From UHGV virus genome UHGV-0098755: a DNA stretch of 64,000 nt; one strand, 5' to 3'. Below, piece after piece: positions 31,158-57,524 of this stretch. The notes beneath the pieces are model-generated. The model saw nothing but the letters and a program-made list of their open reading frames with translations. It was not told where the DNA came from and made no database searches. The number at the start of each line of letters is the position of its first letter. Position 1 is the stretch's first letter. Position numbers and translations under genes: made by a program. This stretch comes from a virus.

Positions 31158-34100
31158 ATGGCTACTTTAAAACAAATACAATTTAAAAGAAGCAAAACCG
31201 CAGGTGCACGTCCTGCTGCTTCAGTATTAGCCGAAGGTGAATTGGCTATAAACTTAAAAGATAGAACACTTTTTACTAAAGATGATTCAGGAAATATCAT
31301 TGATTTAAGTATTTCCGCTGGCGGTAATATCAGTGGAAATATCACTCAAACTGGTGATTATTTACAAAATGGAACATATAATCTTAATGGAAACCAGTTT
31401 GTTTATGCTGGTAAATATATTGAATTCCTGCCTAAAACCGCGGGTAATGGTGCTTGGGCAAACCAACATAAAAATAAAGCTCCTATCTTTACCGATTTGA
31501 GTTCAACTACTTCTACTTCAGAATACCATCCGCTAATTAAACAACGCTATAAAGATGGAACTTTTTCTGTTGGTACGTTAGTAAATGAAGGAAGTTTTAA
31601 AATTCAATATATCAATGAATCTGGTGATTCAAAATATTGGACTTTTAATCGAAACGGTAGTTTTATTGTAGATAATGGCAATATTGAAGCTCGTGCTGGT
31701 AATATTTCGGCTTCAGGTAATATTAACTCGGCAACTGGATTTGTTTCTGCTCCACAGATTAATACAAAAACCATAGTTTTTGATACAAAAGCCTTTGGGC
31801 AATACGATTCACAGTCATTAGTTCAATATGTTTATCCTGGAACCGGTGAAACAAACGGAATCAATTACCTTCGTAAAGTTCGAGCTAAATCAGGCGGAAC
31901 CATTTACCATGAAATCGCTTCTGCGCAGACCGGTAAGAATGATGAAATTTCTTGGTGGACCGGAAATACACTTACTACTAAATTAATGGGTCTTCGTAAT
32001 GATGGCGCAATGGTATTACGTCGTTCACTTGCTATTGGCACAATTACCGCCGACGAAAATACTAACAACTACGGTTCTCCTACTCCAATGGGAGAAAGAT
32101 ATATTGCTTTGGGCGATGCTGCCACTGGTTTAAAATACATTAAGCAGGGTGTTTATGATTTAGTAGGTAATTGGAATTCTGTTGCTTCTATTACTCCTGA
32201 CAGTTTCCGTAGTACTCGTAAAGGTATATTTGGTCGTTCCGAGGACCAAGGCGCAACTTGGATAATGCCTGGAACCAACGCCGCGCTTTTATCGGTTCAA
32301 ACACAAGCTGATAATAACAATGCTGGAGACGGACAAACCCATATCGGGTACAATTCTGGCGGTAAAATGAACCACTATTTCCGTGGTACAGGTCAGATGA
32401 ATATCAATACCCAACAAGGTATGGAAATTAACCCGGGTATTTTGAAATTGGTAACTGGCTCTAATAATGTACAGTTTTATGCTGATGGCACTATTTCTTC
32501 TATCCAACCTGTTAAATTAGATAACGAATTATTTTTAAATAATTCTAATAATACCGCAGGCCTTAAATTTGGCGCCCCTAGCAAAGTTGATGGCTCGAGA
32601 ACTATCCAGTGGAACGCCGGGACCCGCCCGGGTCAGAACAAAAACTATGTGACCATGAAAGCATGGGGTAACGCATTCGACTCCACTGCCGGTAATCGTG
32701 AAACCGTATTTGAATTGTATGACGGCCAGGGCTATCATTTTTGTTCTCAACGTTTAGCACCGACGGGTTCTGAAACTGTTGGTGCTCTTCAATTCAGAAT
32801 TTCCGGCGCTTTACGTGTGGGTGGTGGTATTATATCGGCTGGTTCTATTGCTACTGAATCAAGTTTAGTTGCTAATAATGGATTGTCTGTAAACGGACAA
32901 GCCAAATTTGGCGGAACAGCAAATGCATTGAGAATTTGGAACGCCGAATATGGCGCTATTTTCCGTCGTTCAGAAACAGCATTGCACATTATTCCTACTC
33001 TTAAAGACCAAGGAGAAAATGGCGAAATAGGTAATCTTCGTCCATTGAGCATCGCACTTCATAACGGTATGGTACAAATGCGCCATTCTGTCACGTTAGG
33101 CGATGATGGCAGAGGTGGCAATATGATTACCGTGGACAATGACAGCAAACTTGTCGTGGTAACTTCTAATGCCAGATTAAGCCCTAATTTCCGCATGCAA
33201 ATAGGTCAGTCATCTTATATTGATGCTGAATGTACTGATGCTGTTCGCCCGGCAGGCGCGGGTTCATTTGCTTCTCAGAATAATGAAAATGTCCGTGCGC
33301 CGTTCTATATGAATATTAATCGCACAGATACAAGTACTTACGTTCCTATTTTAAAACAACGCTATGTTCAAGGAAATAGCTGTTATTCTTTAGGTACTTT
33401 AATAAATGGCGGTAACTTCAGAGTTCATTATCATGAAGGTGGTGATAATGGTTCAACTGGTCCTTTAATTAAAGACTTTGGATGGGAATTTACTCGTTCC
33501 GGTGATTTTATATCTCCTAAGCGTGTTTCTGCTGGTGGTTCAGTTTATTTAGGTACGGATGGTAATATCACTGGCGGTTCATTACCTAACTTTGCTAACC
33601 TGAACACAACTTTAGAACGTAGAGTTAAGGTCGGAACTTGGTCCGGTAGTTCAACTGCAGGATGGTATAAATTTGCTACTGTAACTATGCCACAATCAGT
33701 TTCTACCGTCCAATTTAAGATTATAGGTGGTAATGGATATAATGCCAATTCACCAGAACAGGCTACAATTACTGAAGTAGTTCTTCGTACCAGTAATAAC
33801 AATCCTAAAGGTATTAACGCCACTTTATGGGGGCGCACGGGTAATGGATTTACTAATATAGCAACAATTAATACCTCCGGTGATGATTATGACGTTTATC
33901 TGTATGCTGGGACTTATGCAGACAAACTTATAGTTGAATATGACGCCACAGAAAATACCCGTTATATTTCGGTAATTGGACTTAATGGTGGATATCAAAC
34001 ACCAGTAACAGAATTACCCGCTGGTCATCTGCGCGGTCAAGTGTATATGATGTACTCTGATGCTCAGATACCTTATCCGGTCGGTGCTCCGATTCCGTGG

Positions 34101-34775
34101 CCGAGTGATTCAGTTCCTGCTGGATTTGCTTTGATGGAAGGTCAGACCTTTGATAAGTCCGCATATCCAAAGTTAGCTGTTGCATATCCTAGCGGTGTTA
34201 TTCCAGATATGCGCGGGCAAACTATCAAGGGTAAACCAAGTGGTCGTGCTGTTTTGAGCGCTGAGGCAGATGGTGTTAAGGCTCATAGCCATAGTGCATC
34301 GGCTTCAAGTACTGACTTAGGTACTAAAACCACATCAAGTTTCGACTATGGTACTAAGACGACAAGTAGTTTCGACTATGGTACTAAGACCAGTAATAAT
34401 ACTGGTGCTCATACGCATAGTTTGAGCGGTTCCACAAACACCGCCGGTGCGCACAGCCACACAAGCGCTCTTTATGCGGGAAGTAACAACTCTCCTGGTA
34501 CTGGTGCTATAAGAGGATCCGCCGGTTCTGGTAATACGCTTGGAACTTCTTCTTCTGGGGCACATTCGCACTCTATATCTGGTACTGCTGCAAGCGCAGG
34601 CGCTCACGCACATACTGTTGGTATTGGTGCTCATACCCATACAGTTGGTATTGGTGCTCACACCCATTCAGTAGCAATTGGTTCACATGGGCATACAATA
34701 ACTGTAAATAGTACAGGTAATACAGAAAACACGGTTAAAAACATTGCTTTTAACTATATCGTTCGTTTAGCATAA
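31158..34775 (+). CDS. 37: long tail fibre distal subunit gp37 (receptor-recognising tip)
   Basis: 1205 aa; [13 protein letters not shown]... N-terminus; C-terminal HxH His-box repeats ending [11 protein letters not shown]. Confidence 0.95.
34320..34391 (+). repeat. imperfect 30-nt tandem repeat inside gene 37 (encodes [10 protein letters not shown] x2 plus a partial copy)
   Basis: ggtactaaaaccacatcaagtttcgactat / ggtactaagacgacaagtagtttcgactat / ggtactaagacc. Confidence 0.7.
34614..34667 (+). repeat. 27-nt tandem duplication inside gene 37 (encodes TVGIGAHTH x2)
   Basis: actgttggtattggtgctcatacccat / acagttggtattggtgctcacacccat. Confidence 0.7.
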
Positions 34776-34778
34776 GGA

Positions 34779-34796
34779 GAGGGGCTTCGGCCCCTT
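34779..34796 (+). promoter_or_regulatory. UUCG-tetraloop stem-loop between genes 37 and 38, overlapping the gene 38 Shine-Dalgarno
   Basis: GGGGC-UUCG-GCCCC at 34781-34794 with flanking pairs; AAGGAGAGGGG precedes it. Confidence 0.4.
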
Positions 34797-34802
34797 CTAA
34801 AT

Positions 34803-35354
34803 ATGAAAATATATCATTATTATTTTGACACTAAAGAATTTTACAAAGAAGAAAATTACAAACCGGTTAAAGGTCTTGGTCTTCCCGCTCATTCAACAAT
34901 TAAAAAACCTTTAGAACCTAAAGAAGGATACGCAGTTGTATTTGATGAACGTATTCAGGATTGGATTTATGAAGAAGACCATCGCGGTAAACGGGCTTGG
35001 ACTTTTAATAAAGAAGAAATCTTAATAACTGACATAGGAAGCCCGGTTGGTATAACTTTTGATGAACCCGGCGAATTTGATATATGGACTGATGATGGTT
35101 GGAAAGAAGACGAAACATATAAACGCGTTTTAATTCGTAATAGAAAAATTGAAGAATTATATAAAGAATTCCAAGTATTGAATAATATGATCGAAGCTTC
35201 AGTTGCAAATAAAAAGGAAAAATTCTATTATCAAAACCTTAAACGGTTCTTTGCTCTTTTAGAAAAGCATGAGCATCTAGGTGGTGAATTTCCTAAATGG
35301 CCTGAAAAAGAACGGAAGCCTTGGTATAAGCGTTTATTCAGGAATTACGTATAA
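34803..35354 (+). CDS. 38: tail fibre assembly chaperone gp38 (T4 type)
   Basis: 183 aa, MKIYHYYFDTKEFYKEENYKPVKGLGLP... Confidence 0.95.
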   Translation: MKIYHYYFDTKEFYKEENYKPVKGLGLPAHSTIKKPLEPKEGYAVVFDERIQDWIYEEDHRGKRAWTFNKEEILITDIGSPVGITFDEPGEFDIWTDDGWKEDETYKRVLIRNRKIEELYKEFQVLNNMIEASVANKKEKFYYQNLKRFFALLEKHEHLGGEFPKWPEKERKPWYKRLFRNYV

Positions 35355-39037: not shown

Positions 39038-40362
39038 TTGATTTCCTCTAAATCTTTGGTGTATTCAGTAACTACATCAGTAGTTTTCCAATATTCGTTT
39101 TCTTCTTTTTTAGCTTTAGCTTCTTCAGCAAGTTTCTTCGCTTCATCGGAAGTCATATGAAAAATATTCATTCCAACTAGTTTATCAACATAAGAAGAAT
39201 ACATATCGATTTTCGAAAGTTCTTCGGTCAGTTCTTTACGAGTTTTACCTTGTACAACAATTTCACCTGAAATTACTTTCTTAATGAAATGTGCCTTGGC
39301 AAAGGCTAAACGAAATGCTGATTCAGTTTCTTTGATTTTGTTATCAATTCGTTTTTGGACATAAGTTTTACGAACTTCAACAAAGTCTTTAATTAAATCA
39401 ACTACGTTATCGTAAACTTGCAGCTTTCCTTTTTCATTAATGACGGTAATATTCTGGGAACGACGCTCAATCAACCCGAAGTCTTTCATGATTTTTGCAT
39501 GGCGTTCTTCTTCGTTATCGCTCAAAGAGTATTCTTTGCGGAATTTAATTTTAAAGCCAAAACCATGCTCACCACAAGCATCATCCCACGTAATGAAGCC
39601 TTTATCTTCAAGCGGGTCTAAGATTTTACTCACATAAGTTTCACGATCATACTTATACGGAATCTCAGTGATGTGCATTTGAGTTCGTGAAGTAAACTTA
39701 TATGTTCCACGAATTTCATATTGTCCATCAATTTCAACGACTTCACCACGAAATTCTGGGAATTCTACCTTCGGTTTAGTTACTTTCTTTCCTTGAAGAG
39801 CTTGCAGTACAGCTTTCTTAACAGAAGAAACGCTATGAGGAAGAATGTAAGTTGCATAACCAGTTGCAATACCGGAAACGCCATTAAGAAGAACAGTAGG
39901 AATAACAGGCAAATAGAAAGCAGGCGGAATGTGTTCTTTATCTTGATGTACCGGAGCATATTCAGTATCTTTATATACGTTATAGAAATTTTTACTTACA
40001 CGAGCAAAAATATAACGACTTGCTGCTGCTTTTTGAACGGTACGAGAACCAAAGTTTCCTTGACCATCTAATAGAGGAAAGTTATTATTCCAAGTATTAG
40101 CCATCAAAGCACCTGCGTCTTGCGCAGAGTTTTCACCATGATGATATCCAAGGTCCGCTACACCACCTGCAATAGAAGCGAGTTTGTGAAACTTATCTTT
40201 ATTTCCTCGTGCCAAATCAAGAGCTCGAGCAATAACAAATCGTTGAACTGGCTTAAATCCATCAATCATATTTGGAATGGCACGATTTTCAACCGTGTAC
40301 ATAGCATAAGCCAATGCTTCATTATCAATGATACTTTTTAAATCGCGATTATTCAGTTGCAT
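39034..40362 (-). CDS. 52: DNA topoisomerase II medium subunit gp52
   Basis: 442 aa, GyrA-like breakage-reunion domain; MQLNNRDLKSIIDNEALAYAMYTVENRAIP. Confidence 0.95.
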   Translation of the reverse strand: MQLNNRDLKSIIDNEALAYAMYTVENRAIPNMIDGFKPVQRFVIARALDLARGNKDKFHKLASIAGGVADLGYHHGENSAQDAGALMANTWNNNFPLLDGQGNFGSRTVQKAAASRYIFARVSKNFYNVYKDTEYAPVHQDKEHIPPAFYLPVIPTVLLNGVSGIATGYATYILPHSVSSVKKAVLQALQGKKVTKPKVEFPEFRGEVVEIDGQYEIRGTYKFTSRTQMHITEIPYKYDRETYVSKILDPLEDKGFITWDDACGEHGFGFKIKFRKEYSLSDNEEERHAKIMKDFGLIERRSQNITVINEKGKLQVYDNVVDLIKDFVEVRKTYVQKRIDNKIKETESAFRLAFAKAHFIKKVISGEIVVQGKTRKELTEELSKIDMYSSYVDKLVGMNIFHMTSDEAKKLAEEAKAKKEENEYWKTTDVVTEYTKDLEEIK

Positions 40363-40366
40363 AAAT

Positions 40367-40507
40367 TTACCATACTAGTGAATGTAGTGCCATAATAACA
40401 TCAGAAATGAAAAGCACGACTTGAATTAATCCGAACATTACTCCATAATATAGTGCTACCAATAAAGCAGCAAGGGCTACTGAGTAGCCCAAGATTTTCT
40501 TAATCAT
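40367..40507 (-). CDS. small hydrophobic membrane peptide (46 aa)
   Basis: MIKKILGYSVALAALLVALYYGVMFGLIQVVLFISDVIMALHSLVW; start overlaps the end of the ac-like ORF. Confidence 0.5.
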   Translation of the reverse strand: MIKKILGYSVALAALLVALYYGVMFGLIQVVLFISDVIMALHSLVW

Positions 40508-40655
40508 TAGATAACAACGCAAATGTTAAATATGCACACATACCCTGAGCTAAAGCTTGCGAAAACACGCTGCTGACATCAATACAGATAGTTAAAACAC
40601 ATGCTACTATCCAACAAATAAATGAAATAACTCCTAATAATTTTGCGATATTCAT
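40500..40655 (-). CDS. ac: Ac-like small membrane protein (51 aa)
   Basis: MNIAKLLGVISFICWIVACVLTICIDVSS...; GAGGAAAA Shine-Dalgarno; position next to stp as in T4. Confidence 0.55.
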   Translation of the reverse strand: MNIAKLLGVISFICWIVACVLTICIDVSSVFSQALAQGMCAYLTFALLSND

Positions 40656-40662
40656 ATTTTCC

Positions 40663-40743
40663 TCACTGGCGTCCGAAGACGCCTTTAGTTTTAAGATTAT
40701 TACGATAGAACTGCATCACGTGTTCGTTATGGAAATTACTCAT
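40663..40743 (-). CDS. stp: Stp peptide (suppressor of three-prime phosphatase; PrrC/EcoprrI modulator)
   Basis: 26-aa [29 protein letters not shown] matching my recollection of T4 Stp; contains GGCGUC-UUCG-GACGCC hairpin. Confidence 0.85.
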
Positions 40744-41201
40744 TAATATGCCTGCAAAACAAATTTAAAGTTATCAGCCAACATACGGTTCATTTCTTCA
40801 AGTGTTTGATACTCAGAATGATGATTACGAGTAAACGCCAAAGCTAACTGACCTTTACCAAATCCCGTCGTCAGAGGTTTCATCTTAGAAGCAGGCAGAT
40901 AAAACACTGTGTATGGAACATTGTTATTTGCAATAGTACGCGCAAGTTGAGACCGGCGTTGACGAATATGACTTAAAACCGCACTGAATCCTTGCTTAGA
41001 ACGCTGATTACCTACATAAAATCGCGCAGATACACACGGACTATCAAATGGACGACCATCTAATTTACTTACTAAAAAGTAAAATCCAGGTTTAGATAAA
41101 ATATCTTTATGTGGAACTCCCAAAAACCATTCACCGTTCTTGATTGTACCAATAACGGTAGCGCCTGCATTGTTCAGATCAGTAACAGTCATATATTTCA
41201 T
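40743..41201 (-). CDS. ndd: nucleoid disruption protein Ndd
   Basis: 152 aa from ATG at 41201 ([25 protein letters not shown]...) with GAGGAAA Shine-Dalgarno; the track ORF starts 16 codons upstream. Confidence 0.85.
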
Positions 41202-41261
41202 ATTAATTTCCTCTAAATTATTTTCTACTCCAAGGCCGCATGAATACACACGGCCATTAAA

Positions 41262-41477
41262 TTAATCATCGCAGTCGACGCTTAATTCCCAGAACTCTTC
41301 TACAGTATAAGTTTCAGTATCATTTTCAATACAGAAACGTTCATTACTATTATTTGCTAAAGTAGCATTAACTGTCGGTTTCTCGCTAGTGCTCTTAAGA
41401 GGTGAAATACGAATTAACTGATCACCGTTATCTAAACAAAAAATTTCACCAACTTTTACATCTTTAAAACTTTTCAT
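41262..41477 (-). CDS. hypothetical protein (71 aa), ndd.x
   Basis: ORF track. Confidence 0.55.
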   Translation of the reverse strand: MKSFKDVKVGEIFCLDNGDQLIRISPLKSTSEKPTVNATLANNSNERFCIENDTETYTVEEFWELSVDCDD

Positions 41478-41592
41478 AATTCACCTCAGGGAGTATAAAA
41501 TCCAAATGCAGTTGTTGACCATCCCATCCAATATGGAAAATTTGCGCCAATGTAAAACATAAGAATATAAAACCAAATGTTTAGTAAATTCA

Positions 41593-41790
41593 TCATTTTA
41601 CACCATTCCAAATTGTTTCAACTACGGATTTTAAACCATTTTGATGAATATCAATTCCGACTACTGTCATCAAATAGATTCCAACCACAACTGAACCCAA
41701 GGCAAAAATCAGCATGAAAATGAATAAAGCTGGAAAAATATTATCGAAAAACCATTCCATAAATGTAAAAGCACTGCGTTTACGCTTCAT
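41593..41790 (-). CDS. small membrane protein (65 aa from ATG at 41790)
   Basis: Hydrophobic core FPALFIFMLIFALGSVVVGIYLMTVVGI; GAGGAAAA Shine-Dalgarno. Confidence 0.5.
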   Translation of the reverse strand: MKRKRSAFTFMEWFFDNIFPALFIFMLIFALGSVVVGIYLMTVVGIDIHQNGLKSVVETIWNGVK

Positions 41791-41797
41791 ATTTTCC

Positions 41798-41911
41798 TCA
41801 CATAAATCCAAAGTAAGCGTTTAATACATCAATCATTAAAACGATTGGGAATATACTCAAAACTACTAGTATTATAACTACATTCCATATAGCTTTAACA
41901 ATCTTTTTCAT
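41798..41911 (-). CDS. small membrane peptide (37 aa from ATG at 41911)
   Basis: MKKIVKAIWNVVIILVVLSIFPIVLMIDVLNAYFGFM; GGAGGAACAGAA Shine-Dalgarno; the track's 69-aa version reads through the promoter. Confidence 0.45.
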   Translation of the reverse strand: MKKIVKAIWNVVIILVVLSIFPIVLMIDVLNAYFGFM

Positions 41912-41938
41912 TTCTGTTCCTCCGTAGTTGATAGGGTA

Positions 41939-41968
41939 ATAATACCACAGAGGAACAGTCTTGTAAAC
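41939..41968 (-). promoter_or_regulatory. putative early promoter (-35 GTTTAC, 18-nt spacer, -10 TATTAT)
   Basis: gtaaac at 41963-41968, ataata at 41939-41944. Confidence 0.45.
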
Positions 41969-42153
41969 AACTTTTTTAAAAATATTCGTAATAAATGTGA
42001 ATACCAACTACTACTGCTGAAACTTGTACAACCCACCATGCACAAGCAATAAGTACAGAATTCAAAATTTTCATAATAACCTCATCACAAAAGTAAATGT
42101 TAAACAAATTACTGGAATACTAATTAACCAAACAAAACACCACCATAATGAAC

Positions 42154-42426
42154 TCATAGTTCAATCTCAGCGATTTTCATTTCATTACTATTAATAGCCG
42201 CTTTAAGACTATCTGAAAGAATTACATTCCAGTGGTCATTCATATGACCATTGACTAAGCGTGTAATTTCTTCGGGAGTTGAAAAATAAGGCGTATCAGA
42301 CTCCCAGTGCGATAGTCCCAAGCGAGTATAAATCATACCTTCATCATCGCTAGAATATTCAACTGACACAAACTCATCAGTTATTTTATGTTTAGCGTAA
42401 TAAAATTTAAATTTCATTTTACTCAA
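42154..42426 (-). CDS. hypothetical protein (90 aa)
   Basis: ORF track. Confidence 0.55.
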   Translation of the reverse strand: MSKMKFKFYYAKHKITDEFVSVEYSSDDEGMIYTRLGLSHWESDTPYFSTPEEITRLVNGHMNDHWNVILSDSLKAAINSNEMKIAEIEL

Positions 42427-42629
42427 TAATCCGCTAAAAGATCGACGATTGCATCACGAAGACACTTATTCGCAATACGTTTAAGAGCAATTTCAGTTTC
42501 TGGGGCATTTTGAATAATCATTGAATTCAATTCAGCCTCAGCAAACTGAAGTTCTTTAACTAATTCAGCTTTATATTTTCCTTGTCCTTTCTTAGCTTTT
42601 GCTCGTTTTAGTTCAGCTGTAGTAAACAT
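42423..42629 (-). CDS. hypothetical protein (68 aa from ATG at 42629)
   Basis: GGAGAATAAA Shine-Dalgarno before MFTTAELKRAKAKKG...; the track's 102-aa version reads through the upstream promoter. Confidence 0.55.
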   Translation of the reverse strand: MFTTAELKRAKAKKGQGKYKAELVKELQFAEAELNSMIIQNAPETEIALKRIANKCLRDAIVDLLADY

Positions 42630-42663
42630 TTTATTCTCCAAATCTGTATCAGTTGATAGTTGT

Positions 42664-42693
42664 ATAGTACCACAGTCCTTGTGGTATGTAAAC
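42664..42693 (-). promoter_or_regulatory. putative early promoter (-35 GTTTAC, 18-nt spacer, -10 TACTAT), spacer palindrome CCACAAGGACUGUGG
   Basis: gtaaac at 42688-42693, atagta at 42664-42669. Confidence 0.5.
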
Positions 42694-42712
42694 CGTTTTG
42701 TGAAAAATTTTT

Positions 42713-43270
42713 TTAAATGGAAAGATACCATCCGTTGTAGTTGCTTTTTCTTACAACCTTACGAAGGTCTTCTCTATCACCGATGAACTTCGGAGTGTAC
42801 TGGATGACACCTGGATAAATTTCTTTAGTGTTGAATATAATTATACAGTCAGCGACTTGATGATTCAGAATGGGCCCTAGATTTATTCCAGAACCGTATG
42901 GATACTCTCCGCTGCATCCTGTTGTTACAGAAATCCAACGTGAGTCAGTTTGGTGTGTCTTAACTTCTACACGAAGCCCGCAGTATCTTGGATGCGCCAA
43001 TACATCCCATGCGTATGTATACGGGTCATTAACATCCTCTTGGCCTTTGTTAACATACCCGCTTAGCCAATCTGCTACAAAAAACTCTGCATACACAGCG
43101 ATACGGCATCTTTCGATGACTTCTGCTTTATCCTGATTTGGATTTTGTTTTAAAGAGTATCTTGCTGTATCAGCAATTTTGACCTTCATTTCACTAGTCA
43201 AGTCATTGTTCGACATGGTAAATGCCGGAATCTGAAACAGTCTCTGTAAACCCGGATTCGTTTTCTGCAT
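42713..43270 (-). CDS. denB: endonuclease IV
   Basis: 185 aa, position between ndd.x genes and rIIB as in T4. Confidence 0.8.
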   Translation of the reverse strand: MQKTNPGLQRLFQIPAFTMSNNDLTSEMKVKIADTARYSLKQNPNQDKAEVIERCRIAVYAEFFVADWLSGYVNKGQEDVNDPYTYAWDVLAHPRYCGLRVEVKTHQTDSRWISVTTGCSGEYPYGSGINLGPILNHQVADCIIIFNTKEIYPGVIQYTPKFIGDREDLRKVVRKSNYNGWYLSI

Positions 43271-43327
43271 TGAACTTTCCTTTTACGTCGGAATCACTGA
43301 TATTCATACAATAAATCATAGTTTCCC

Positions 43328-43352
43328 TTAAAACAAAAGGGCCGAAGCCCTT
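43328..43352 (-). terminator. terminator-like UUCG hairpin (AAGGGC-UUCG-GCCCUU) followed by a U-rich tract
   Basis: Hairpin 43337-43352 immediately after stop at 43356. Confidence 0.5.
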
Positions 43353-43355
43353 ATT

Positions 43356-43550
43356 TTATTTGAATTGCGCAATTCTTTTTTCTAAACAATCTGCGTAAGA
43401 TTTCATTGAGATGAACTGTGAAAGCAGTAATTCTTGTTCAACTTCATTAATCGTTAGAAACTTTGTGCTTTCTAAAAATTTGCTCAGTGCATTAATTTTG
43501 AGCATTAATTGATCGTATTCTTCTTTTACTCGTGCTTGATAACCTAACAT
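43356..43550 (-). CDS. hypothetical protein (64 aa)
   Basis: ORF track. Confidence 0.55.
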   Translation of the reverse strand: MLGYQARVKEEYDQLMLKINALSKFLESTKFLTINEVEQELLLSQFISMKSYADCLEKRIAQFK

Positions 43551-43564
43551 AATTTTCCTTAGTT

Positions 43565-43580
43565 AAGGGCCGAAGCCCTT
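43565..43580 (-). terminator. UUCG hairpin (AAGGGC-UUCG-GCCCUU) overlapping the rIIB stop
   Basis: Same hairpin sequence as at 43337-43352. Confidence 0.4.
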
Positions 43581-44517
43581 ATTTAAATTGTTCAGTAACG
43601 TCTTCAACTACTTCGTATTGGCAGGTACGCATTTTAGCATCGTTGTAATCAATCGGAATTGATACTACATCACGCGGATGCACTTTAACTTTTACAACTC
43701 GACTGGTTGAACTGCCAAAGTGACGAATATAAGATTTAGAACACACATGCAGACCACGAGAACAAGTTTGTGTATCATCGTCATTCACACGAGTACGTGG
43801 CATTTTAACTACTTTACCCGGACTGTTATCAAAGGTGTTTGAGTGACAGTCAAAGTAGTTGTCACGAACTACTTTCCAAGCATAGAAGTAACCATCTTCG
43901 GTGATTTCAATATCGTTTGCTACCAAGAAATCAAAGAGTCGAGATACCGCTTTTTGGCTTGGGTTTTCCAACAGATTTTCCAAGAACGGAAAATAAAATT
44001 CAAAGTTTTCACCTTTTTCCATCGAATCGAGAATACGATCAACTAAACCAGACCGCAATTCAATATTTTGATAGAACAAGCTTCCACCTTCAATTCGAAC
44101 ATCACCAGAAATATATTTTTCAACAGCGCGACGAACATTAATTTTTTGCGCAGCTTCTTCCAACTTATCTGCTACAAGCAGATTAAGAATTTCCTGGAAG
44201 TTTGAATGAGTATTAGGAGTTGCGTTATAAGTTACACCGTCAACAGTAATTGAAATGAATTTTTTAGATGCATTCCAAATAATATCAGATTTAGCAACTG
44301 GAGCAATAACTGCATCGCTATTAACTTTAACTGTAATATCACCGCTAATAGTAACTTTGGAACGCTCAGCTTCTTCAGCATTTTTCAAAACACGACGGAT
44401 GGTGTCAACCGATACACCTTGCCAATCAGCCAATTCCTGCTGAGTATAATTACCACTTGAATACAGTTTAACAATTTCAGCTTGTTCGTTTTTGGTCAGG
44501 CATTTAATATTGTACAT
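43579..44517 (-). CDS. rIIB: rIIB membrane-associated protein
   Basis: 312 aa, MYNIKCLTKNEQAEIVKLYSSGNYTQQELADWQG... Confidence 0.95.
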   Translation of the reverse strand: MYNIKCLTKNEQAEIVKLYSSGNYTQQELADWQGVSVDTIRRVLKNAEEAERSKVTISGDITVKVNSDAVIAPVAKSDIIWNASKKFISITVDGVTYNATPNTHSNFQEILNLLVADKLEEAAQKINVRRAVEKYISGDVRIEGGSLFYQNIELRSGLVDRILDSMEKGENFEFYFPFLENLLENPSQKAVSRLFDFLVANDIEITEDGYFYAWKVVRDNYFDCHSNTFDNSPGKVVKMPRTRVNDDDTQTCSRGLHVCSKSYIRHFGSSTSRVVKVKVHPRDVVSIPIDYNDAKMRTCQYEVVEDVTEQFK

Positions 44518-44528
44518 AATTTTCCTTA

Positions 44529-46706
44529 TTAGGCCGCAAGGGCCTTCATAGTTTTAGCGATTTGAGAAACTTCATCATCACTTAAAGAGTTGCGATAACC
44601 GATGAAGTCGGAAACAATACGGAATTTCTTGGTAAACTCAGCAACCATTTTATCACTGTTTTTTGAAGCATTACGTGATAATTCATCAAAAAGATTAGTT
44701 ACTGTCCAGATGTCATGACCGATGGTACCTTTTCCACCGTTGAAATATATACCCTGCAATGAACTAACCATATTACCAAGGCGAGTATATTCTTCGGAAA
44801 CTTCATCTACACTGAAGTACTTCATCATAAAATCTAGTTCAGGATACTTAATAATTTTATCAATATATCGTTTAGCTGAACTTGAATAACCTACATACTT
44901 ATCATAATCTACATCATCAAAAGCATCTACATATAAATCACGCAAAGTTTCAAAAATACATTGGCACTGACCAAGTTCTTTTACCTTTTTCTGCAAAAGC
45001 GGACGAATAACATAAAATTCATTAATGCCAATAAGATTAGCCATACGAATCAAAATATTCGTAGATGGATGACAAAGCGATGTAGTGCCATCCATAGAGA
45101 AAATATCAGAACGATGCATGTATGCTACATAACCAGTAATTTCATCTGCTTCTGACGTAAGTGTAAACAGTTCCTCTTTTTCCCAGCGCCCGTCTTTAAT
45201 TTCAAACTTAAACGCAGTAGCAGCTTTAGGACGAGGAGCTTTACTTTTAACTGCCTTCGGAATATAACTTTTAACTAAAGCTTCAATTTCTGACAAATAA
45301 TGAATGTTAACTTCATCACTTTCAAACATTGCCATAATATCAGGGAGTAAATCAATCTGCGATTCTACTTCCGGATTAATAAACAGAAGACGCTCATTAT
45401 GATGAATATTCAAAGTGTTATTAAATTCACTATCATCTAACGCATGTGCTAATCCACGGACAATATTAACACGATTTTTAATATTATCAATAACGATATT
45501 AATTTTTGTTGTATTAATGCCAAACAGACGATAACTTGATGCAATGGCTGAAGTTTCATGGCTTTGCTTAATGCGTTTCAGTCGAGGGTCAAGATTTACT
45601 TCATACACAACCCCTGCATTACATAACTTACTGTCAGGTTCAAACATGCTCTGCATCTTCTTATATGACAGATTTTTAGTCGTGAATTTGACTGAATTGC
45701 TAATCATATAATCTCGAGCAGAATATCCCATCTTCATCAATTCACGGTATGTATGACGAGGAGATGTAGATTCTTTAAATCGTTTTACATCTTCATTAAA
45801 TGCTTTCTCACTGAGCTCTTTAACACGCTCAATAATATTTTTACGAGTACGATCATCTAATGAAAGAGCTTCGCGTGATGGAGCAATATCAAGTGAACCC
45901 ATTGGAAACTTAATGTAATTCACTTCATTGCGGATGCTTAACCAGTTACGATCTCTAATAACACCATCAATAGGATAAACAATGCCGCCATAGATAGCAT
46001 ACAATCCACCGCGATCAGGCCAGTATCTTTCTGGATTTACGCCGTAATAGTCATCAAAATCCGGAAAATAATCAATTTCGCGGTCAAGACCATTAATGAT
46101 AGCCAAATCTTTGAACGGTCGCATGATATAAGAAACTTCATAAGCAAAGTTTCTAAAGTCTTTTTCTTCAACTGGAACTACGATTTCAATACCAGTTTTA
46201 TCATCTGGACCCATTTCTTTTACGAATGTAGGTTTAATCTGCGGACCGTCACCATCCATGTAAGCTACATAACCACGAATTTCGCCTTTATGATATGAAG
46301 TAATACTAAATGTATCAGTATAACTAAACGGAGATTTAGAACCTAAACCAAATCCACCAATGAAATCGTTAGATTCAGCCTTGGATGAACTAAAGTATGA
46401 ATTATACAACCCAGGAGAATTATCATCACCCTGAATATCAAAATCGCTCATACCTGGACCAAAATCACGACAAACAAATCGCGGGTCTAATCGTCCGGGA
46501 ACTTGAATGATAAATTTTTCAGGATTTCCATTGAGAGCATGGGCATCAATCATATTAGTAATCAATTCACGGACTACTGCGCGAATCTTGTTTGTATACA
46601 AATCAGATGATAGAATTTTAAATACTTTAGGAGATGCTGTGATGCTAAATGCTTTTGATTTAGAACCATTACCAAGAATTGTTTCTTTTTCAGTGGTGAT
46701 AATCAT
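44529..46706 (-). CDS. rIIA: rIIA protein (GHKL-type ATPase fold)
   Basis: 725 aa, [30 protein letters not shown]... Confidence 0.95.
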
Positions 46707-46716
46707 AATTTCCTCA

Positions 46717-46920
46717 TTAATTCATATTGCGTTTAATAACTTCAGCAACTTCTAGTAGTTCATCTTTAGTTGCAGTGTCGGATTGAATTTTATCTCTAAT
46801 ATCCTTAAAGCGGTTTTTAAACTCTTCGGCTTCTCCCATATCGAAAAAGCGTTGAATGATTCTATATTCTCGATGAACTGCTTTATCAAAAAGTTCTAAA
46901 TTTACTCTATATGATTTCAT
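46717..46920 (-). CDS. hypothetical protein (67 aa), rIIA.1-like
   Basis: ORF track; downstream of a strong early promoter. Confidence 0.6.
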
Positions 46921-46945
46921 TTCAATATCCTCATTTGCCCAATTA

Positions 46946-46975
46946 ATTATACCACATCCTTGTGGTAAAGTAAAC
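46946..46975 (-). promoter_or_regulatory. early promoter (-35 GTTTAC, 18-nt spacer, extended -10 TGGTATAAT)
   Basis: gtaaac at 46970-46975, attata at 46946-46951; spacer palindrome CCACAAGGAUGUGG. Confidence 0.55.
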
Positions 46976-48792
46976 TATTGGCTCATCCATTCTTTACGAA
47001 GGTCAGCATTATCTCCCATGAGCATTTCAAAAAGTTCTTTCCAATTCTCAGGAAGTTTAACAACATCATATACTGGATTTTGAATCATCTCACGATATTC
47101 AGATTTTTCCAAAGAGCCAAGTCCCTTAATATAACGGATGTTATGTTTAGGTAGAGCATCTTTGGCACTCTCATATTCAGCGACTGTATAAAACCATTCT
47201 TGTTTTTTACCGACCTGAGCGATGATTACAGGAGTTTTGACAAAGCGAATTCTTCCTTGTTCAAACAGTTCTGGCCAATTACTGAAAAATCCGAGCAGAG
47301 AAGGATAAATGCTTCCTAGACCATCGTGGTCAGCGTCAGTCATAATAGCAATATTATGATAATTCAAGTTTTCGGCTTTTTCACCAAGAACTAATCCAGT
47401 GATTGCGCAAATATCAAACAGTTCTTTGTTTTTAAGCATATCAGCATATGACATACCCCAACTGTTGAGAACTTTACCACGTAATGGATAACCACCATGA
47501 AGTTCTTTATCACGAACATCAATAAGATATCCAATAGCAGAATCACCCTCAGTCAAGAAAAGAGTAGTATCAGCATCTTTACCACAAAGATTCGCTTTGA
47601 TATGTTTATGAACCTTAGCTTTAGAAGCCTTTTTAGCTGCTTTAGTTTCTGCTGCTTTTTCTGCCGCCAATTTACGAGCTAATGCTGCTTCAATAATCGG
47701 CATCAAAATCGCTTCATTATTCAAAATAGCACGTGAAATCTTTTTAGCATCAAGTTGAATATGACTACGGATTTCACCAAAAGGAGAAGTAAGTCGTTCT
47801 TTAGTTTGAGAATCAAATCGCATGTTTTTCATATCACGAACAAACATAACGATAGTCAAACATTCTTTAACGCGTGCTTTAGTTACATCAATTTTGAACT
47901 TGCGTTTGATTTGTGGAATAAGGTCTTCACAAATATCATCCATAACACAGTCAATGTGATGGCCACCATTCTTAGTATGAATGTTATTGACGTACGTCAA
48001 CTGACGAAAACCATCCGGTGAACGACCAACCGCAATAGAACAGTTTTCTTGTTCTTGAACGATAGCATGTTCATCATATTGGCGTGCATATTTCTTAAAA
48101 TTACCCTGAACCTTTTTACCATTAAAGGTAAATTGAATATCAGGATAAACTACTGCAAGTGTCTGGAGACGATCCAGTGTAATGTCAAGATAAACTTGGG
48201 ACAACTCATTAGTTTCAAATGACATAAAATCAGGAATGAAAGTAACACGAGTTCCTTTCCATTTTCCAGGAATATCTTCCCATGATTTATTTTCCATGCC
48301 ATTTGAACAACGAACTACAATATTATTTTGACCATCACCAGTTTCACCGACAAACATCACAGAAAAAATGTTTGTCAAACTAGAACCAACACCATTCATA
48401 CCGCCAGTGACGCGTTCTTTATCATCACCGAAGTTACCACCTGCTTTTGGAATAGTCCATGCAGCAACAGGACCAGGAATTTCTTCACCGGTAGGTGTTT
48501 TAACCATAGCCTGTGGAATACCGCGACCGTTATCTTCAACTGTTACTTGATTGTTTTTAATAGTAACATTAATTTTATTTGCGAATTTAAACTTAGTACG
48601 AATACCTTCATCTACTGAGTTATCGATAATTTCATCAATAAGCTTAACAAGACCAGGTACATACTGAACACTTTCCCATTTACCAAACAGAAAGCGCTCA
48701 TGCATTTCATTAGCTGAAGAGCCAATGTACATGCCGCTACGCTTTTTGATATGTTCAATATCGCTCAGAATTTTAATTTCATTCTTAATCAT
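46975..48792 (-). CDS. 39: DNA topoisomerase II large subunit gp39, unsplit (ATPase plus C-terminal region in one ORF)
   Basis: 605 aa from ATG at 48792 (MIKNEIKILSDIEHIKKRSGMYIGS...); continuous through the region that is gene 60 in T4. Confidence 0.95.
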   Translation of the reverse strand: MIKNEIKILSDIEHIKKRSGMYIGSSANEMHERFLFGKWESVQYVPGLVKLIDEIIDNSVDEGIRTKFKFANKINVTIKNNQVTVEDNGRGIPQAMVKTPTGEEIPGPVAAWTIPKAGGNFGDDKERVTGGMNGVGSSLTNIFSVMFVGETGDGQNNIVVRCSNGMENKSWEDIPGKWKGTRVTFIPDFMSFETNELSQVYLDITLDRLQTLAVVYPDIQFTFNGKKVQGNFKKYARQYDEHAIVQEQENCSIAVGRSPDGFRQLTYVNNIHTKNGGHHIDCVMDDICEDLIPQIKRKFKIDVTKARVKECLTIVMFVRDMKNMRFDSQTKERLTSPFGEIRSHIQLDAKKISRAILNNEAILMPIIEAALARKLAAEKAAETKAAKKASKAKVHKHIKANLCGKDADTTLFLTEGDSAIGYLIDVRDKELHGGYPLRGKVLNSWGMSYADMLKNKELFDICAITGLVLGEKAENLNYHNIAIMTDADHDGLGSIYPSLLGFFSNWPELFEQGRIRFVKTPVIIAQVGKKQEWFYTVAEYESAKDALPKHNIRYIKGLGSLEKSEYREMIQNPVYDVVKLPENWKELFEMLMGDNADLRKEWMSQ

Positions 48793-48844
48793 CACTTATC
48801 CTCGTTTGGTTTCGGGAATATTATACTCCAATAATCATAAAGCT

Positions 48845-48862
48845 AAAGGCCCGAAGGCCTTT
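48845..48862 (-). terminator. UUCG hairpin (AAAGGCC-UUCG-GGCCUUU) after the lipoprotein gene
   Basis: Inverted repeat abutting stop at 48862. Confidence 0.4.
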
Positions 48863-49131
48863 TATTTAAAACGAATAGTCGAATCCTTGAAGAATAGTCC
48901 AGAACATACTGTTCCTTCTACTTTCTGCCCAGTAGGTCCAATAGCACGAAATCCAGTATGCTGGAAATCATTTTCAGAGCAACCGAACCAATTATATCCA
49001 GTGATTTCAATATTAGTAAAACCACTTGAAGACAAAACTTTGGTTGCATTATCAGCATCAGTACATCCTATTAAAGACACTGCTAATACTAATGCTGCAA
49101 TAGAACGATTAATATATTTCATAATTTTCAC
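48862..49131 (-). CDS. putative lipoprotein (89 aa)
   Basis: Signal peptide with lipobox LIGC (MKIMKYINRSIAALVLAVSLIGCTD). Confidence 0.6.
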   Translation of the reverse strand: MKIMKYINRSIAALVLAVSLIGCTDADNATKVLSSSGFTNIEITGYNWFGCSENDFQHTGFRAIGPTGQKVEGTVCSGLFFKDSTIRFK

Positions 49132-49499
49132 TTAAATTTAATGGCTTGAAGAAGACTAATAACTCTCAAGCGGCTTCTTTCATCTTTAACTGTAAAGGAA
49201 AGAGGGTCACCAGATTTCATAGTGATAGTGCATTCAAAATCAAAATTTTCGGGAACTTCTTCGAAGAAGTCAAATTCTTCAGCATAAATTAGAACATTAC
49301 TCTGAAAACTGTGAAGAATTTTTCCGTCATTTCCAGATGCTGTACTAATCATCGTAACATTATGACCTTTCATATCTTCAACGATAAATTCGCTTGTAGA
49401 TATTACAGCATTAATAGAACCATTCCTATAAATAGCAGACATTAGATATTTCTTTTCTTCGCCTTCGCGAATACGATATTTCTTACCGATTTTAAACAT
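49128..49499 (-). CDS. hypothetical protein (about 123 aa from ATG at 49499)
   Basis: The track ORF starts at GTG 49505; ATG two codons downstream follows an AAGGGTG Shine-Dalgarno. Confidence 0.55.
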   Translation of the reverse strand: MFKIGKKYRIREGEEKKYLMSAIYRNGSINAVISTSEFIVEDMKGHNVTMISTASGNDGKILHSFQSNVLIYAEEFDFFEEVPENFDFECTITMKSGDPLSFTVKDERSRLRVISLLQAIKFK

Positions 49500-49501
49500 A
49501 A

Positions 49502-49678
49502 TCACCCTTTAAGTAAGTCGTAAAATCCACCATTCACATGCTTAGGAGCGGAAACTAACCGAATAGCAATCCGATGACAATCAGGACATACATCAGTATC
49601 CCTTTCAGAAATTTTCTTGATTTTTTCGTATTCTTTTGCGCAGTCTTTGGATTGACATTTATAATCATAAAGAGGCAT
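49502..49678 (-). CDS. zinc-ribbon protein (58 aa), below ORF-track cut-off
   Basis: MPLYDYKCQSKDCAKEYEKIKKISERDTDVCPDCHR... two CxxC pairs; stop overlaps the next start (ATGA). Confidence 0.55.
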   Translation of the reverse strand: MPLYDYKCQSKDCAKEYEKIKKISERDTDVCPDCHRIAIRLVSAPKHVNGGFYDLLKG

Positions 49679-49680
49679 AA

Positions 49681-50100
49681 TTATTCCTTAAAGTGAGCTT
49701 TCAACATCTGATACAATGACCATGCCTGTTCATTATTTTCAATAGTAACTTTCATTACCGGGAATTCTGTGAAATCTTCTATTTGTTCTTGCTCTTCCTG
49801 CTCTTGTTCTTCAGCAGCCTGATATGGATTTTCAACTTCATCAAAGAACCCAGCTTCGTTAGTAGAGAGCCAGATAAAGTTTTCGTCAAGGATATCACCG
49901 CCGGCACAACGTTTGAGTACACCTATGGATGTCATAATTTTAGTAGGACGCCCAAGATAATCAGCATCTAAAATTTTAAAAGGCTCCATACCTAAACGTC
50001 GTGCATAGATTCCGTTATCAGTATGGTCTTTAATAAAATTTTCTTGAGCTTGTTTATTTTTAAATTGATACCATTTATTAACTTCAAATTTAATAGCCAT
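49681..50100 (-). CDS. hypothetical protein (139 aa), possibly goF-like by position
   Basis: ORF track; acidic [10 protein letters not shown] stretch. Confidence 0.6.
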
Positions 50101-50315
50101 TAATAAATTTCCTTCCAGTAAGTTGTGCCGTCTTCAGTAATTTCACGAAATACACCGTAAATTGGCTGTTTATCACCGACTTTCTCATACACATAAACCG
50201 AAGTCAAGTGAGTAAACTTGCTAGTGTGTTCCTTTTGAACTACTACCAAATTTGGATCAAATAATACATCTTCAAATTCGTCATTAGTGCAATTCTGAAC
50301 AATTTTACGTTTCAT
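50100..50315 (-). CDS. hypothetical protein (71 aa)
   Basis: ORF track. Confidence 0.55.
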
Positions 50316-50328
50316 TACAATTTCCTCA

Positions 50329-50607
50329 TTAATTGAACAGTGGAGCGATACGTTTCAGAAGAGTAGCAGCACCTTTGGCGAATTTTACATCATGAAAAAC
50401 AGTTTCTTCTGTAACAACTCGAGCTTTAATATTTTCACAATCCCAATTTTTACGAACAATCTTCAAAAGCTGCAGTAAATCTTTACATTCAGCAATATCG
50501 ATAACACATCCACGAGAATCTTCCATTATCGCACGATAACCGTAAGCCATACCATAATCGTTGAAAGATTGCTCGATGATAATTAAGTTTTCCATTTTAT
50601 TCTCCAA
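50329..50607 (-). CDS. hypothetical protein (92 aa)
   Basis: ORF track; downstream of a palindromic promoter/leader module. Confidence 0.55.
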   Translation of the reverse strand: MENKMENLIIIEQSFNDYGMAYGYRAIMEDSRGCVIDIAECKDLLQLLKIVRKNWDCENIKARVVTEETVFHDVKFAKGAATLLKRIAPLFN

Positions 50608-50692
50608 GTTATTTTCTGTATCAGTAGTTGATATTGATATAGTACCATAATCAACTACTGATGTATATAGTTTTATGAAAAAAATTTAAACT

Positions 50693-51181
50693 TTATGCAT
50701 AGAGAGCATTGCTATAGTGTTTAATCCAACTTTCAGGAATGACTTTGTATGTTCCTAAAAATACCACATTGTACAGCTTAACACCATCTTCTACCCATTG
50801 ATCGGTAATGTATCCACACATAGCACGAGTATAAACAACCCTTCCATCGTCTTTGATAAAGTTAAATTCACAAGGAGCAATGAACTTAATAGCTTGACCG
50901 AGTTTCCACTTAAAGTCTACACCTACATGCGAAGTATCAATCGTTTCAATTCCTTTAGCAGGAACAGCTTTCAAAAACGCAGATTCAAGAAATTTCGCAC
51001 GAACATAGCCAAACTGGGGTTTAGACTTTCCATCTTTAGGAATGATACGCACTTTTACTTCAGAATCTTCATCTTTAACACCGTGTTTAAGCTGAATGCT
51101 TACAATTTCGACCAATTTTCCTGCTGCTTTAGAACGGGATTTATCAGATACACGAGCTAATTCACCAATATTAATAATCAT
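50693..51181 (-). CDS. motB: MotB-like protein (162 aa)
   Basis: Size and position upstream of dexA as in T4; C-terminal GYITDQWVEDGVKLYNVV shared with the next ORF. Confidence 0.6.
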   Translation of the reverse strand: MIINIGELARVSDKSRSKAAGKLVEIVSIQLKHGVKDEDSEVKVRIIPKDGKSKPQFGYVRAKFLESAFLKAVPAKGIETIDTSHVGVDFKWKLGQAIKFIAPCEFNFIKDDGRVVYTRAMCGYITDQWVEDGVKLYNVVFLGTYKVIPESWIKHYSNALYA

Positions 51182-51257
51182 AGTTATCTCTCACTTGTTA
51201 AAAAGATTTTATACTTCACGGGACCATTATACTCTGGTCCCAAGAGTTTGTAAACTA

Positions 51258-51800
51258 TTAATTTAAAATAGCTACCACCGCACTACGAGGTACTACACTA
51301 AAATCACCTGCATGAACAACGTTCAGAAGTTCAACACCATCTTCAATCCATTGGTCTGTTACCCAACCACAGACCGAAATAAATGGAGTCTTGATAGCTA
51401 CTGCATGAGTCAAAAGGTCAGTAGGATCGCATTCTTGAAAGAGGATAAGCTCTGCTTCAAAGACTATAGTTTTAATTACTTCATCATTATCTAAGCGATG
51501 TGCTCGAATCACGTAAGCTTTATTCTTATCATACCAGTTACTTTTTGAAAAGCTTTTAACCACAAACTCGCCTTCACCAAAAGCATTAGTCAATGCTTTA
51601 TAACCCAAATTTAGTTCAGTAGTTTTAATTTCAGTTTCAACCAGTTTGTAGGTTTTGCCAATTTCGATGGTCCGAGCAGTCATAAATGTTTCCTTAATTT
51701 CTAATGGTTTAACAAGAGTGCCGTACATGCTTGCTATATCCATATCAAACGGTTTATCTACAGGATTCGGTGTGTATTCAGGATTATAATTAAATTTCAT
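51258..51800 (-). CDS. MotB paralog (180 aa), motB.1-like
   Basis: C-terminal GWVTDQWIEDGVELLNVV homologous to the preceding ORF. Confidence 0.6.
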   Translation of the reverse strand: MKFNYNPEYTPNPVDKPFDMDIASMYGTLVKPLEIKETFMTARTIEIGKTYKLVETEIKTTELNLGYKALTNAFGEGEFVVKSFSKSNWYDKNKAYVIRAHRLDNDEVIKTIVFEAELILFQECDPTDLLTHAVAIKTPFISVCGWVTDQWIEDGVELLNVVHAGDFSVVPRSAVVAILN

Positions 51801-51802
51801 AA

Positions 51803-52342
51803 TTATCTCATTTCAATAAAATCTACGAGTTCAGCATGCGATTTGCGGAACATTACTTGGTGCCCACCAATGATAACTTCATCTTCAGGAACTTCGTATA
51901 CAGCGAGATAAAATCCTTTAGAAGATAATTCTTCCCGTTCTTCTCGCGTGAACCATCTCATCATATCATATTCGCTAGCGAAAGCAAAATGATAAAGACC
52001 TATAAACCATCCTGGAATATGATATTCTACTCCAACATAATCTTTCTTGAACTTAGTATTAATTACTATATTAGCGTTTTTAACTAATAGTTTATCTTCG
52101 TGTGGTAAAGGAATTCTTTTATTATTATCGCTATGATGCATAAAATTAGGTCTGTCATAACCTACGTGTAATAGCCACTCTTCGCTCCATGAATCTATTA
52201 TACTCCTGTACGGCGTTATTTGAACACAAAGATTTCGACGTATTGTTATAGCATCTTCATAATCAAGAATACTAAACGATGATTCAACACGATAAATTTT
52301 CATTTTATTATCCTCAGTAGCTATGGTGTTATAATACCACAA
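51803..52342 (-). CDS. hypothetical protein (179 aa), motB.2-like
   Basis: ORF track. Confidence 0.6.
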   Translation of the reverse strand: MWYYNTIATEDNKMKIYRVESSFSILDYEDAITIRRNLCVQITPYRSIIDSWSEEWLLHVGYDRPNFMHHSDNNKRIPLPHEDKLLVKNANIVINTKFKKDYVGVEYHIPGWFIGLYHFAFASEYDMMRWFTREEREELSSKGFYLAVYEVPEDEVIIGGHQVMFRKSHAELVDFIEMR

Positions 52343-52366
52343 CTAACCGAGGAAGTAAACAACTTT

Positions 52367-53050: not shown

Positions 53051-53292
53051 TAAATTTTCCTTGCTAAATCGCGAATTTGACCTACAGTATAATCTTGGAT
53101 ATAAACTTTATTAATGGGCTCATCAATAAATTTTGCCATAGATTCAATATCTTTTTGTATCTCTTCAAGACTGTATACTATCTTTGAAGCTTTTTCGCGA
53201 ATAGTAACATTATCAGGTCCTGGATTTTCCTCAATGACAGCTTTAACATTTGTCATAAGAGATTTAAACTGATGTAAACTTAATTCAATCAT
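53050..53292 (-). CDS. hypothetical protein (80 aa), dexA.1-like
   Basis: ORF track; paralogous to the next ORF. Confidence 0.55.
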   Translation of the reverse strand: MIELSLHQFKSLMTNVKAVIEENPGPDNVTIREKASKIVYSLEEIQKDIESMAKFIDEPINKVYIQDYTVGQIRDLARKI

Positions 53293-53545: not shown

Positions 53546-53551
53546 ATTTAA

Positions 53552-55179: not shown

Positions 55180-55180
55180 A

Positions 55181-55927: not shown

Positions 55928-55956
55928 ATTTTTCTCACGGACGGTTGACTACTTAT

Positions 55957-55986: not shown

Positions 55987-56043
55987 AACTTTATGTAAAA
56001 ATGCTTTAAAAATTTCATGGTATAATGAATCTAAGTCCTTCCA

Positions 56044-57516: not shown

Positions 57517-57524
57517 ATTAATTC

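Follow-up and report, generated by a model that had tools for sequence, protein, structure and literature searches.

Tandem repeats in the gp37 needle of a T-even phage as probable outgoing and returning halves of one conserved stem repeat

The closest described system is the distal tip of the T4 long tail fibre, where the needle domain D11 (residues 882-1009) of gp37 is inserted into the collar domain D10, to which residues 1010-1026 also belong (PMC6957217). The stem of this needle consists of two arms of 50 residues each (882-931 and 960-1009), and the receptor-contacting tip subdomain (932-959) sits between the arms and outside the stem (PMC6957217). The T4 stem is known to be trimeric and six-stranded, with metal ions held octahedrally by pairs of HxH motifs (PMC6957217, PMC12609058). 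Seven iron atoms lie along the needle, and among the contacts described, G921 packs on F970 and G964 on H929 of the neighbouring chain (PMC6957217). Since the chain doubles back at the head, it forms a six-strand needle barrel, and it has been suggested that the number of HxH motifs scales with needle length (PMC12609058). Variation in this part of the fibre has been reported as well. As summarised in passages of two later papers (PMC3157838, PMC7002106), Tetart et al. (1996, 1998) described for the T-even adhesins that segments near the C-terminal end of gene 37 were duplicated in frame and that brief conserved motifs served as sites of recombination. According to the same passages, these duplications were laboratory-selected, affected the small adhesin domain and changed the host range; those in T4 gene 37 are reported there to have extended it to Yersinia (Tetart et al. 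1996, in PMC7002106).

The DNA analysed here, called the window, is a stretch of 64,000 nucleotides from the virus genome UHGV-0098755. It is a T-even phage genome, with about 95% nucleotide identity between positions 40000-60000 and many Escherichia and Shigella T4-like phages, although no record identical to the window was found in the searched collection. No tRNA genes were found within the 64 kb. On the plus strand, the open reading frame at 31158-34775 is gene 37, encoding a distal long tail fibre subunit of the T4 gp37 type with 1205 amino acids, which matches the PHROG 295 tail fibre protein with an E-value of 1e-113. Its C-terminal 248 residues match the T4 gp37 tip structure (PDB 2XGF) at E 1.6e-91 with phmmer, and the alignment (query 58-305, chain 14-242) extends from the collar through the two arms of the stem to the return segment at the C-terminus. 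A sequence-only reading of this DNA had flagged tandem duplications in what it took to be the His-box region of a gp37 needle, within the last 460 nt of this frame, and the 2XGF match bears out that assignment.

Gene 37 is followed by a frame of 183 amino acids and then by one of 218. The first of these (34803-35354, plus strand) encodes a gene 38-type tail fibre assembly chaperone, as judged from its match to PHROG 105 (tail fibre assembly, E 1.2e-43); a Pfam search of the 183-residue protein returned no family, whereas PHROGs did assign one. The gene at the same position in T4T and GiZh is annotated as gp38 or as distal long tail fibre assembly catalyst, and a dedicated chaperone of the gp38/Tfa type directly downstream of gene 37 is what a T4-type tip is expected to have. 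Between the two genes (34774-34805), a Shine-Dalgarno sequence AAGGAG overlaps the stop codon of gene 37 and lies 23 nt before the ATG at 34803, with a GGGGC-UUCG-GCCCC hairpin (34781-34794; minimum free energy -15.6 kcal/mol, z -2.3) separating it from that ATG. This DNA is 100% identical to T4, and we take the arrangement to be the known split ribosome-binding site of T4 gene 38, in which the hairpin brings the Shine-Dalgarno sequence and the AUG together. At the other end of the gene, the shaft (31158-34085) is a mosaic and about 180 amino acids longer than that of T4 (1205 versus 1026 for the whole proteins), and the largest coverage of gene 37 by any phage record is 86%. The stretch preceding the collar (about residues 830-970) has no Pfam match and is absent from T4, and it also occurs in other long gp37 proteins (P0134 and P0137).

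The C-terminal part of the protein, all encoded on the plus strand, can be read as a succession of T4-like elements. A phage tail collar domain at residues 976-1023 (34083-34226; Pfam PF07484, E 9e-11, 42 bits against a cut-off of 24) immediately precedes the stem, as in a T4-type tip. The first HxH motif (HSH, residues 1043-1045, 34284-34292), equivalent to T4 H883/H885, marks the base of the ascending arm. It is followed by an array of histidine-free units of about ten residues at 34293-34409, delimited by Tandem Repeats Finder and by the unit sequences, which contains the 30-nt repeat of the sequence-only reading. This array comprises the degenerate unit A0 (SASASSTDL, 34293-34319), the 10-residue units A1 (34320-34349) and A2 (34350-34379), and the degenerate 10-residue unit A3 (34380-34409). 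The arm then continues into a 14-residue HxH unit at 34410-34460, from HTH at 1085-1087 to HSH at 1099-1101, which was placed by the HxH positions and by the Pfam family PF03335 (Phage_fiber, a 14-residue repeat; residues 1080-1093, 25.5 bits, cut-off 20). The best match to this family is thus the 14-residue HxH unit beside the tip, and neither the 10-residue FDY units nor the 9-residue HxH units are covered by it.

Between the third and fourth HxH motifs lies a variable tip or head segment (34461-34562), homologous in position to the T4 tip subdomain 932-959 (PMC6957217) and, by analogy, presumed to hold the receptor-binding loops. Its sequence differs from that of T4 and is common to F2, AV117, GiZh and a Shigella sonnei protein (P0001). 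On the far side of the tip, a descending 14-residue HxH unit (34563-34613, HSH 1136-1138 to HAH 1150-1152) is paired one-to-one with its ascending counterpart across the family, and it runs into a descending array of four 9-residue HxH units, D1 to D4 (34602-34709), again delimited by Tandem Repeats Finder and the unit sequences and containing the 27-nt repeat of the sequence-only reading. A conserved C-terminal segment of 21 amino acids (34710-34772), whose DNA lies within the 100% identity to T4 that starts at about 34700, then returns to the collar. Altogether, the gene 37 protein has eight HxH motifs, at residues 1043, 1085, 1099, 1136, 1150, 1159, 1168 and 1177, compared with seven in T4. 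Three stand before and five after the 34-residue tip segment. A central variable segment flanked by HxH series is characteristic of a T4-type tip; in T4 itself the motifs come in the same order ahead of and behind this segment, and a gp38-type chaperone gene likewise follows. T4 differs from the window in having one motif fewer, another tip sequence and an unrelated, shorter shaft upstream of about 34085.

Both arrays are real tandem repeats, in frame within the gene 37 frame, and Tandem Repeats Finder and the translation agree with the sequence-only reading on where they lie. The 30-nt array was detected at 34320-34392 (2.4 copies, 86% matches, score 111) and the 27-nt array at 34602-34672 or 34682 (2.6-3.0 copies, 83-86% matches, scores 100 and 85). 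No further tandem array with a score of at least 60 was found by this program in the 64-kb window. In the protein, the 30-nt array reads as one 10-residue unit present twice and then a degenerate third, and the 27-nt array reads as AHAHTVGIG, AHTHTVGIG, AHTHSVAIG and SHGHTITVN. The pair of TVGIGAHTH units at 34614-34667, which had been described as a twofold repeat, is indeed the best-matching phase (25 of 27 nt), but the full array consists of four 9-residue units. Likewise, the idea that both repeats contribute additional metal-binding HxH units holds for the 27-nt unit only, since the 30-nt unit contains no histidine, and the gain over T4 amounts to a single motif. The copies are few (two to four) and imperfect (83-93% identical), with adjacent 27-nt copies differing at 4-9 of 27 nt and paralogous 30-nt copies at 5-7 of 30 nt. 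Because the two units A1 and A2, although identical in protein, differ at 5 of 30 nt, all of them synonymous and including a serine codon switch from TCA to AGT, they are not the product of a recent duplication. A minus-strand frame of 110 amino acids (34335-34667) spans both arrays; it is of low complexity and rich in Ser, Thr, Cys and Arg, and we did not retain it as a gene, since its presence seems to follow mechanically from the repetitive coding strand, rich in His, Gly and Thr.

Comparison with the solved T4 structure suggests what these arrays are. The alignment to 2XGF is continuous save for two gaps, one of 10 and one of 9 residues, which fall exactly at the two arrays. Relative to T4, the window thus has exactly one extra 10-residue unit in the ascending arm and exactly one extra 9-residue unit (HTHTVGIGA) in the descending arm, giving stem arms of 60 and 59 residues as against 50 and 50. 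The T4 numbering used here reproduces every residue named in the two structural papers (PMC6957217, PMC12609058), and both of the published contacts fit a simple antiparallel register in which the positions of facing residues sum to about 1891. This register places TDL 892-894 across from H998-H1000 and FDY 902-904 across from H989-H991. We infer from the two contacts and the domain boundaries that FDY units and HxH units would face each other height for height.

On these grounds, we consider it very probable that the needle found in T4-type gp37 and lambda Stf is built on a single structural repeat, old and conserved, of which one array is the outgoing half and the other the returning half. 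The chain would climb from the collar to the receptor-binding tip and fold back, and three such chains would form a six-stranded stem in whose core metal ions are lined up, every chain contributing one HxH pair to the binding of each ion. One layer of the stem would then be made of a histidine-free unit of about ten residues going up (xxSS[F/T]D[Y/L]GTK) and a 9-residue unit coming down ([A/S]HxHxVxIG), the three chains surrounding one metal ion per 10/9 layer, and a second type of layer would be formed by the 14-residue HxH units on each side of the tip. With four 10/9 layers here and three in T4, the stem would be one layer longer (about 60+59 versus 50+50 residues), and eight metal sites would be expected instead of seven. 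Units would be gained or lost in pairs, because both arms must stay equal in length, and the conserved unit sequences may double as short patches of homology for swaps of needle and tip cassettes between fibres. An AlphaFold2 model of the monomer (233-residue C-terminus, alignment of 44 sequences) was poor, with a mean pLDDT of 55 and a pTM of 0.22, as expected for an obligate intertwined, metal-bound trimer.

Equal copy numbers in the two arms would be anticipated because the T4 stem is published as an antiparallel hairpin with arms of 50 and 50 residues (PMC6957217, PMC12609058). We show here that the copy numbers are indeed coupled across homologous needles. The HxH spacing was parsed in 216 unique complete C-terminal needles, drawn from the best 120 of 2237 homologues (E <= 1e-10, 90%-cluster search), 144 further representatives (50%-cluster search), 80 IMG/VR loci, 12 GenBank phages and the window. 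Throughout this set, the spacing between the first and second HxH motifs (12 + 10n residues) rises in step with the count of trailing 9-residue spacings, with six states observed. A spacing of 22 residues goes with one trailing 9-residue spacing (2 needles), 32 with two (104 needles), 41 or 42 with three (96 needles), 52 with four (8 needles), 62 with five (1 needle) and 73 with six (1 needle). The 14-residue HxH units are likewise matched across the tip, with none on either side in 80 needles, one on each side in 132 and two on each side in 2. The copy numbers of the two arrays are thus locked together in 215 of the 216 unique needles, a count that is not to be read as a probability, given that the homologues are linked by descent and recombination; co-inheritance of whole cassettes could account for part of the coupling. 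We infer selection to be its cause.

Five needles do not conform to this pattern. On inspection by eye, four of them (P0017, P0037, P0205 and P0237) owe their deviation to the loss or gain of a single histidine, and their lengths conform. The sole true exception is L051 (IMG/VR 3300030021_000020, about 2130-2200 of the locus), which has two FDY units and three C-terminal HxH units. It is one 9-residue unit short through a clean deletion of 27 nt, the DNA being otherwise locally identical to that of phage R5505. It may represent a real contraction, in which case an unmatched needle may be tolerated, or a defective genome or an assembly error. As for the conforming needles, the expansions look independent rather than descended from one inherited event, because the unit sequences differ between lineages. 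T-evens and lambda-like fibres have FDY-FDY, whereas P0016, P0041 and P0103 carry FDY-PDL-FDY (so P0016 and P0041) or FDY-TDL-FDY, and TVSTFDY/GTTSFDY alternate in P0168; there are also two different contractions, P0254 keeping FDY and P0256 keeping TDL.

A more far-reaching proposal, which we regard as possible rather than probable, is that needle length is quantised by a strict pairing, such that each added 9-residue HxH unit needs one 10-residue FDY unit and the 14-residue units are paired in the same way. Stems would then be built of one to six layers, the units would serve as landing pads for recombination, and the number of layers could act as a slowly evolving ruler for the reach of the tip through the host surface. 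An explicit statement of the pairing rule was not found in the literature examined, and the rule follows naturally from the solved structure.

The repeat layout is, judged by comparison of the deposited sequences, old and stable. Eleven of the twelve T-even isolates that were fetched (F2, AV117, ECO07P2, GiZh, PNJ-9, S1P5QW, AV116, AV122, TH57, C6 and R5505, from the genera Tequatrovirus, Mosigvirus, Gaprivervirus and Dhakavirus) share the exact stem spacings of the window, T4 being the odd one out, and this holds although the spacing across their tips ranges from 35 to 56 residues. When a 126-nt query across the two-unit ascending array was used, 169 of 300 matching phage records covered at least 80% of it, compared with only 52% coverage in T4 and RB59. 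Unit A2, with its AGT-AGT serine codons, is identical in nucleotide sequence in the window, F2, AV117, ECO07P2, GiZh and PNJ-9, whereas paralogous A copies within one genome share only 22-28 of 30 nt. Since the same copy is more alike across phages than two copies are within one phage, the duplication predates these phages. A departure from this pattern is seen in AV122 (L089), where D1 and D2 are the same at 27 of 27 nt, against 19-23 of 27 in the other phages compared, which points to conversion or renewed duplication in the AV122 lineage not long ago.

The relatives share the window's needle to different extents. The gp37 proteins of F2, AV117, ECO07P2, GiZh, PNJ-9 and S1P5QW have the spacings 42, 14, 37/38, 14, 9, 9, 9 of the window and essentially the same tip. 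F2 and AV117 are 94-95% identical to the window over 34100-34800. These six phages differ from it at scattered positions in the collar, where the window equals T4, and in their shafts. Outside the T-evens, the C-termini of lambdoid prophage Stf proteins in E. coli, Shigella and Enterobacter have the same collar, needle, tip, units and pairing rule, but their short N-terminal parts belong to another type of fibre and most have either a three-layer T4-like stem or no 14-residue units. A 293-residue 'tail fiber protein' in a bacterial assembly of Shigella sonnei (P0001) is 89% identical to the window across the collar, needle and tip, including the loops of the tip. Fibres in bacterial genomes such as this one are presumably prophage, and the similarity indicates that the needle cassette has been exchanged between virulent T-even phages and bacterially encoded fibres.

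Mosaicism is also evident at the DNA level within the window. Compared with T4, the window is 100% identical over 34096-34339 and again from about 34700 through the stop codon and the intergenic hairpin, divergent between 34339 and about 34700, and unrelated upstream of about 34085. The junctions with T4-like DNA therefore lie within A1 on the left and within D3/D4 on the right. F2 and AV117, whose collars are unlike that of the window, match it at 100% across the cassette that runs from A2 through D2, and in S1P5QW and AV116 the identity sets in where A2 meets A3. By these alignments, the arrays coincide with the recombination junctions of a swapped needle/tip cassette. In the window, the 3' half of A1 (34335-34349, AGTTTCGACTAT) equals the 3' half of A2 (34365-34379), unlike that of F2, AV117, ECO07P2 and T4, which reads AGCTTTGACTAT. 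Two independent synonymous changes could have produced this, or else a conversion tract of very small extent where T4-type and F2-type DNA meet.

The sequence-only reading had proposed that expansion and contraction of the repeats could form a hypervariable mechanism for tuning the fibre tip. In such a device, frequent slippage or unequal crossing-over would generate host-range variants within populations. Several observations lean that way: copy number differs between T4 and the window and ranges widely across the family, L051 has cleanly lost a single unit, the two identical D units of AV122 suggest occasional conversion, A1 of the window resembles A2 of the same gene, and not A1 of F2 or T4, in its 3' half, and, in a passage of PMC7002106, laboratory-selected duplications of T4 gene 37 are reported to have widened the host range to Yersinia. 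Such a contingency locus, however, would be expected to show copy-number polymorphism among close isolates and many near-identical, slippage-prone copies. Here, the 11 T-evens of four genera are alike despite quite different tips, with T4 differing, the layout is common in phage records, and there are only two to four imperfect copies (83-93%). In addition, each copy is closer to its counterpart in other phages than to its neighbour, the copy numbers of the two arrays are locked together with an unmatched state in a single needle out of 216, and the arrays lie in the stem rather than in the receptor-contacting tip (PMC6957217). The laboratory duplications of Tetart et al. are reported to concern a small adhesin domain bounded by His boxes and to change the host range; the arrays of the window are fixed, ancient stem units present in many phages, and the tip at 34461-34562 is excluded from them. 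We thus regard a hypervariable device as very unlikely. The cases of AV122, the A1 half-unit and L051 are hints of rare homogenisation or contraction, exceptions that do not amount to a mechanism. Copy number is constant among close relatives (11 of 12), where the hypervariability idea fails by the standard that the sequence-only reading itself had set, but does differ across the wider family, and the idea survives only as slow, paired change on an evolutionary scale.

Even if the arrays are halves of one structure, their coupling might reflect linkage alone, with needle-plus-tip cassettes moving as blocks and arms of equal length having no structural need. The region is indeed a mosaic in which a cassette holding both arrays has been swapped whole, between flanks 100% identical to T4 and with a cassette 100% identical to F2 and AV117. 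But the junctions fall inside the arrays, so that unmatched recombinants should be frequent if they were tolerated, and one has been seen. Moreover, six or more copy-number states are seen, built from different unit sequences, and separate events in both arms were needed for each, and the published equal arms of 50 and 50 residues form one antiparallel stem (PMC6957217, PMC12609058). Linkage as the only cause is accordingly very unlikely indeed. There is finally the question of artefact, which the sequence-only reading had itself raised. Assemblers classically go wrong on short tandem repeats, but nothing that points to such an error was found here. The same layout recurs with identical copy-specific synonymous substitutions in F2, AV117, ECO07P2, GiZh and PNJ-9, and the same arrays with these copy-specific substitutions are found in many independently sequenced phages and prophages; the crystallised T4 protein has one copy fewer of each unit, and scores of 100-111 in Tandem Repeats Finder, with no other array in the 64 kb, are further points against an error of assembly or sequencing and against a fortuitous resemblance. 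The probability of either is negligible.

The reading that we favour, in which the two arrays are the rising and falling halves of one stem repeat, means for annotation that the flagged repeats are ordinary stem units of a T4-type fibre tip and no special device for variability. The structural repeat is already known and its layout here is common, occurring in prophage fibres and in numerous deposited phage sequences; the explicit pairing rule is mildly new. That there should be an eighth metal site is a minor prediction open to testing. For the engineering of fibre tips in phage therapy, stem units would have to be added or removed as matched pairs on both sides of the tip, and the unit boundaries would offer natural, proven junctions for swapping tip cassettes.
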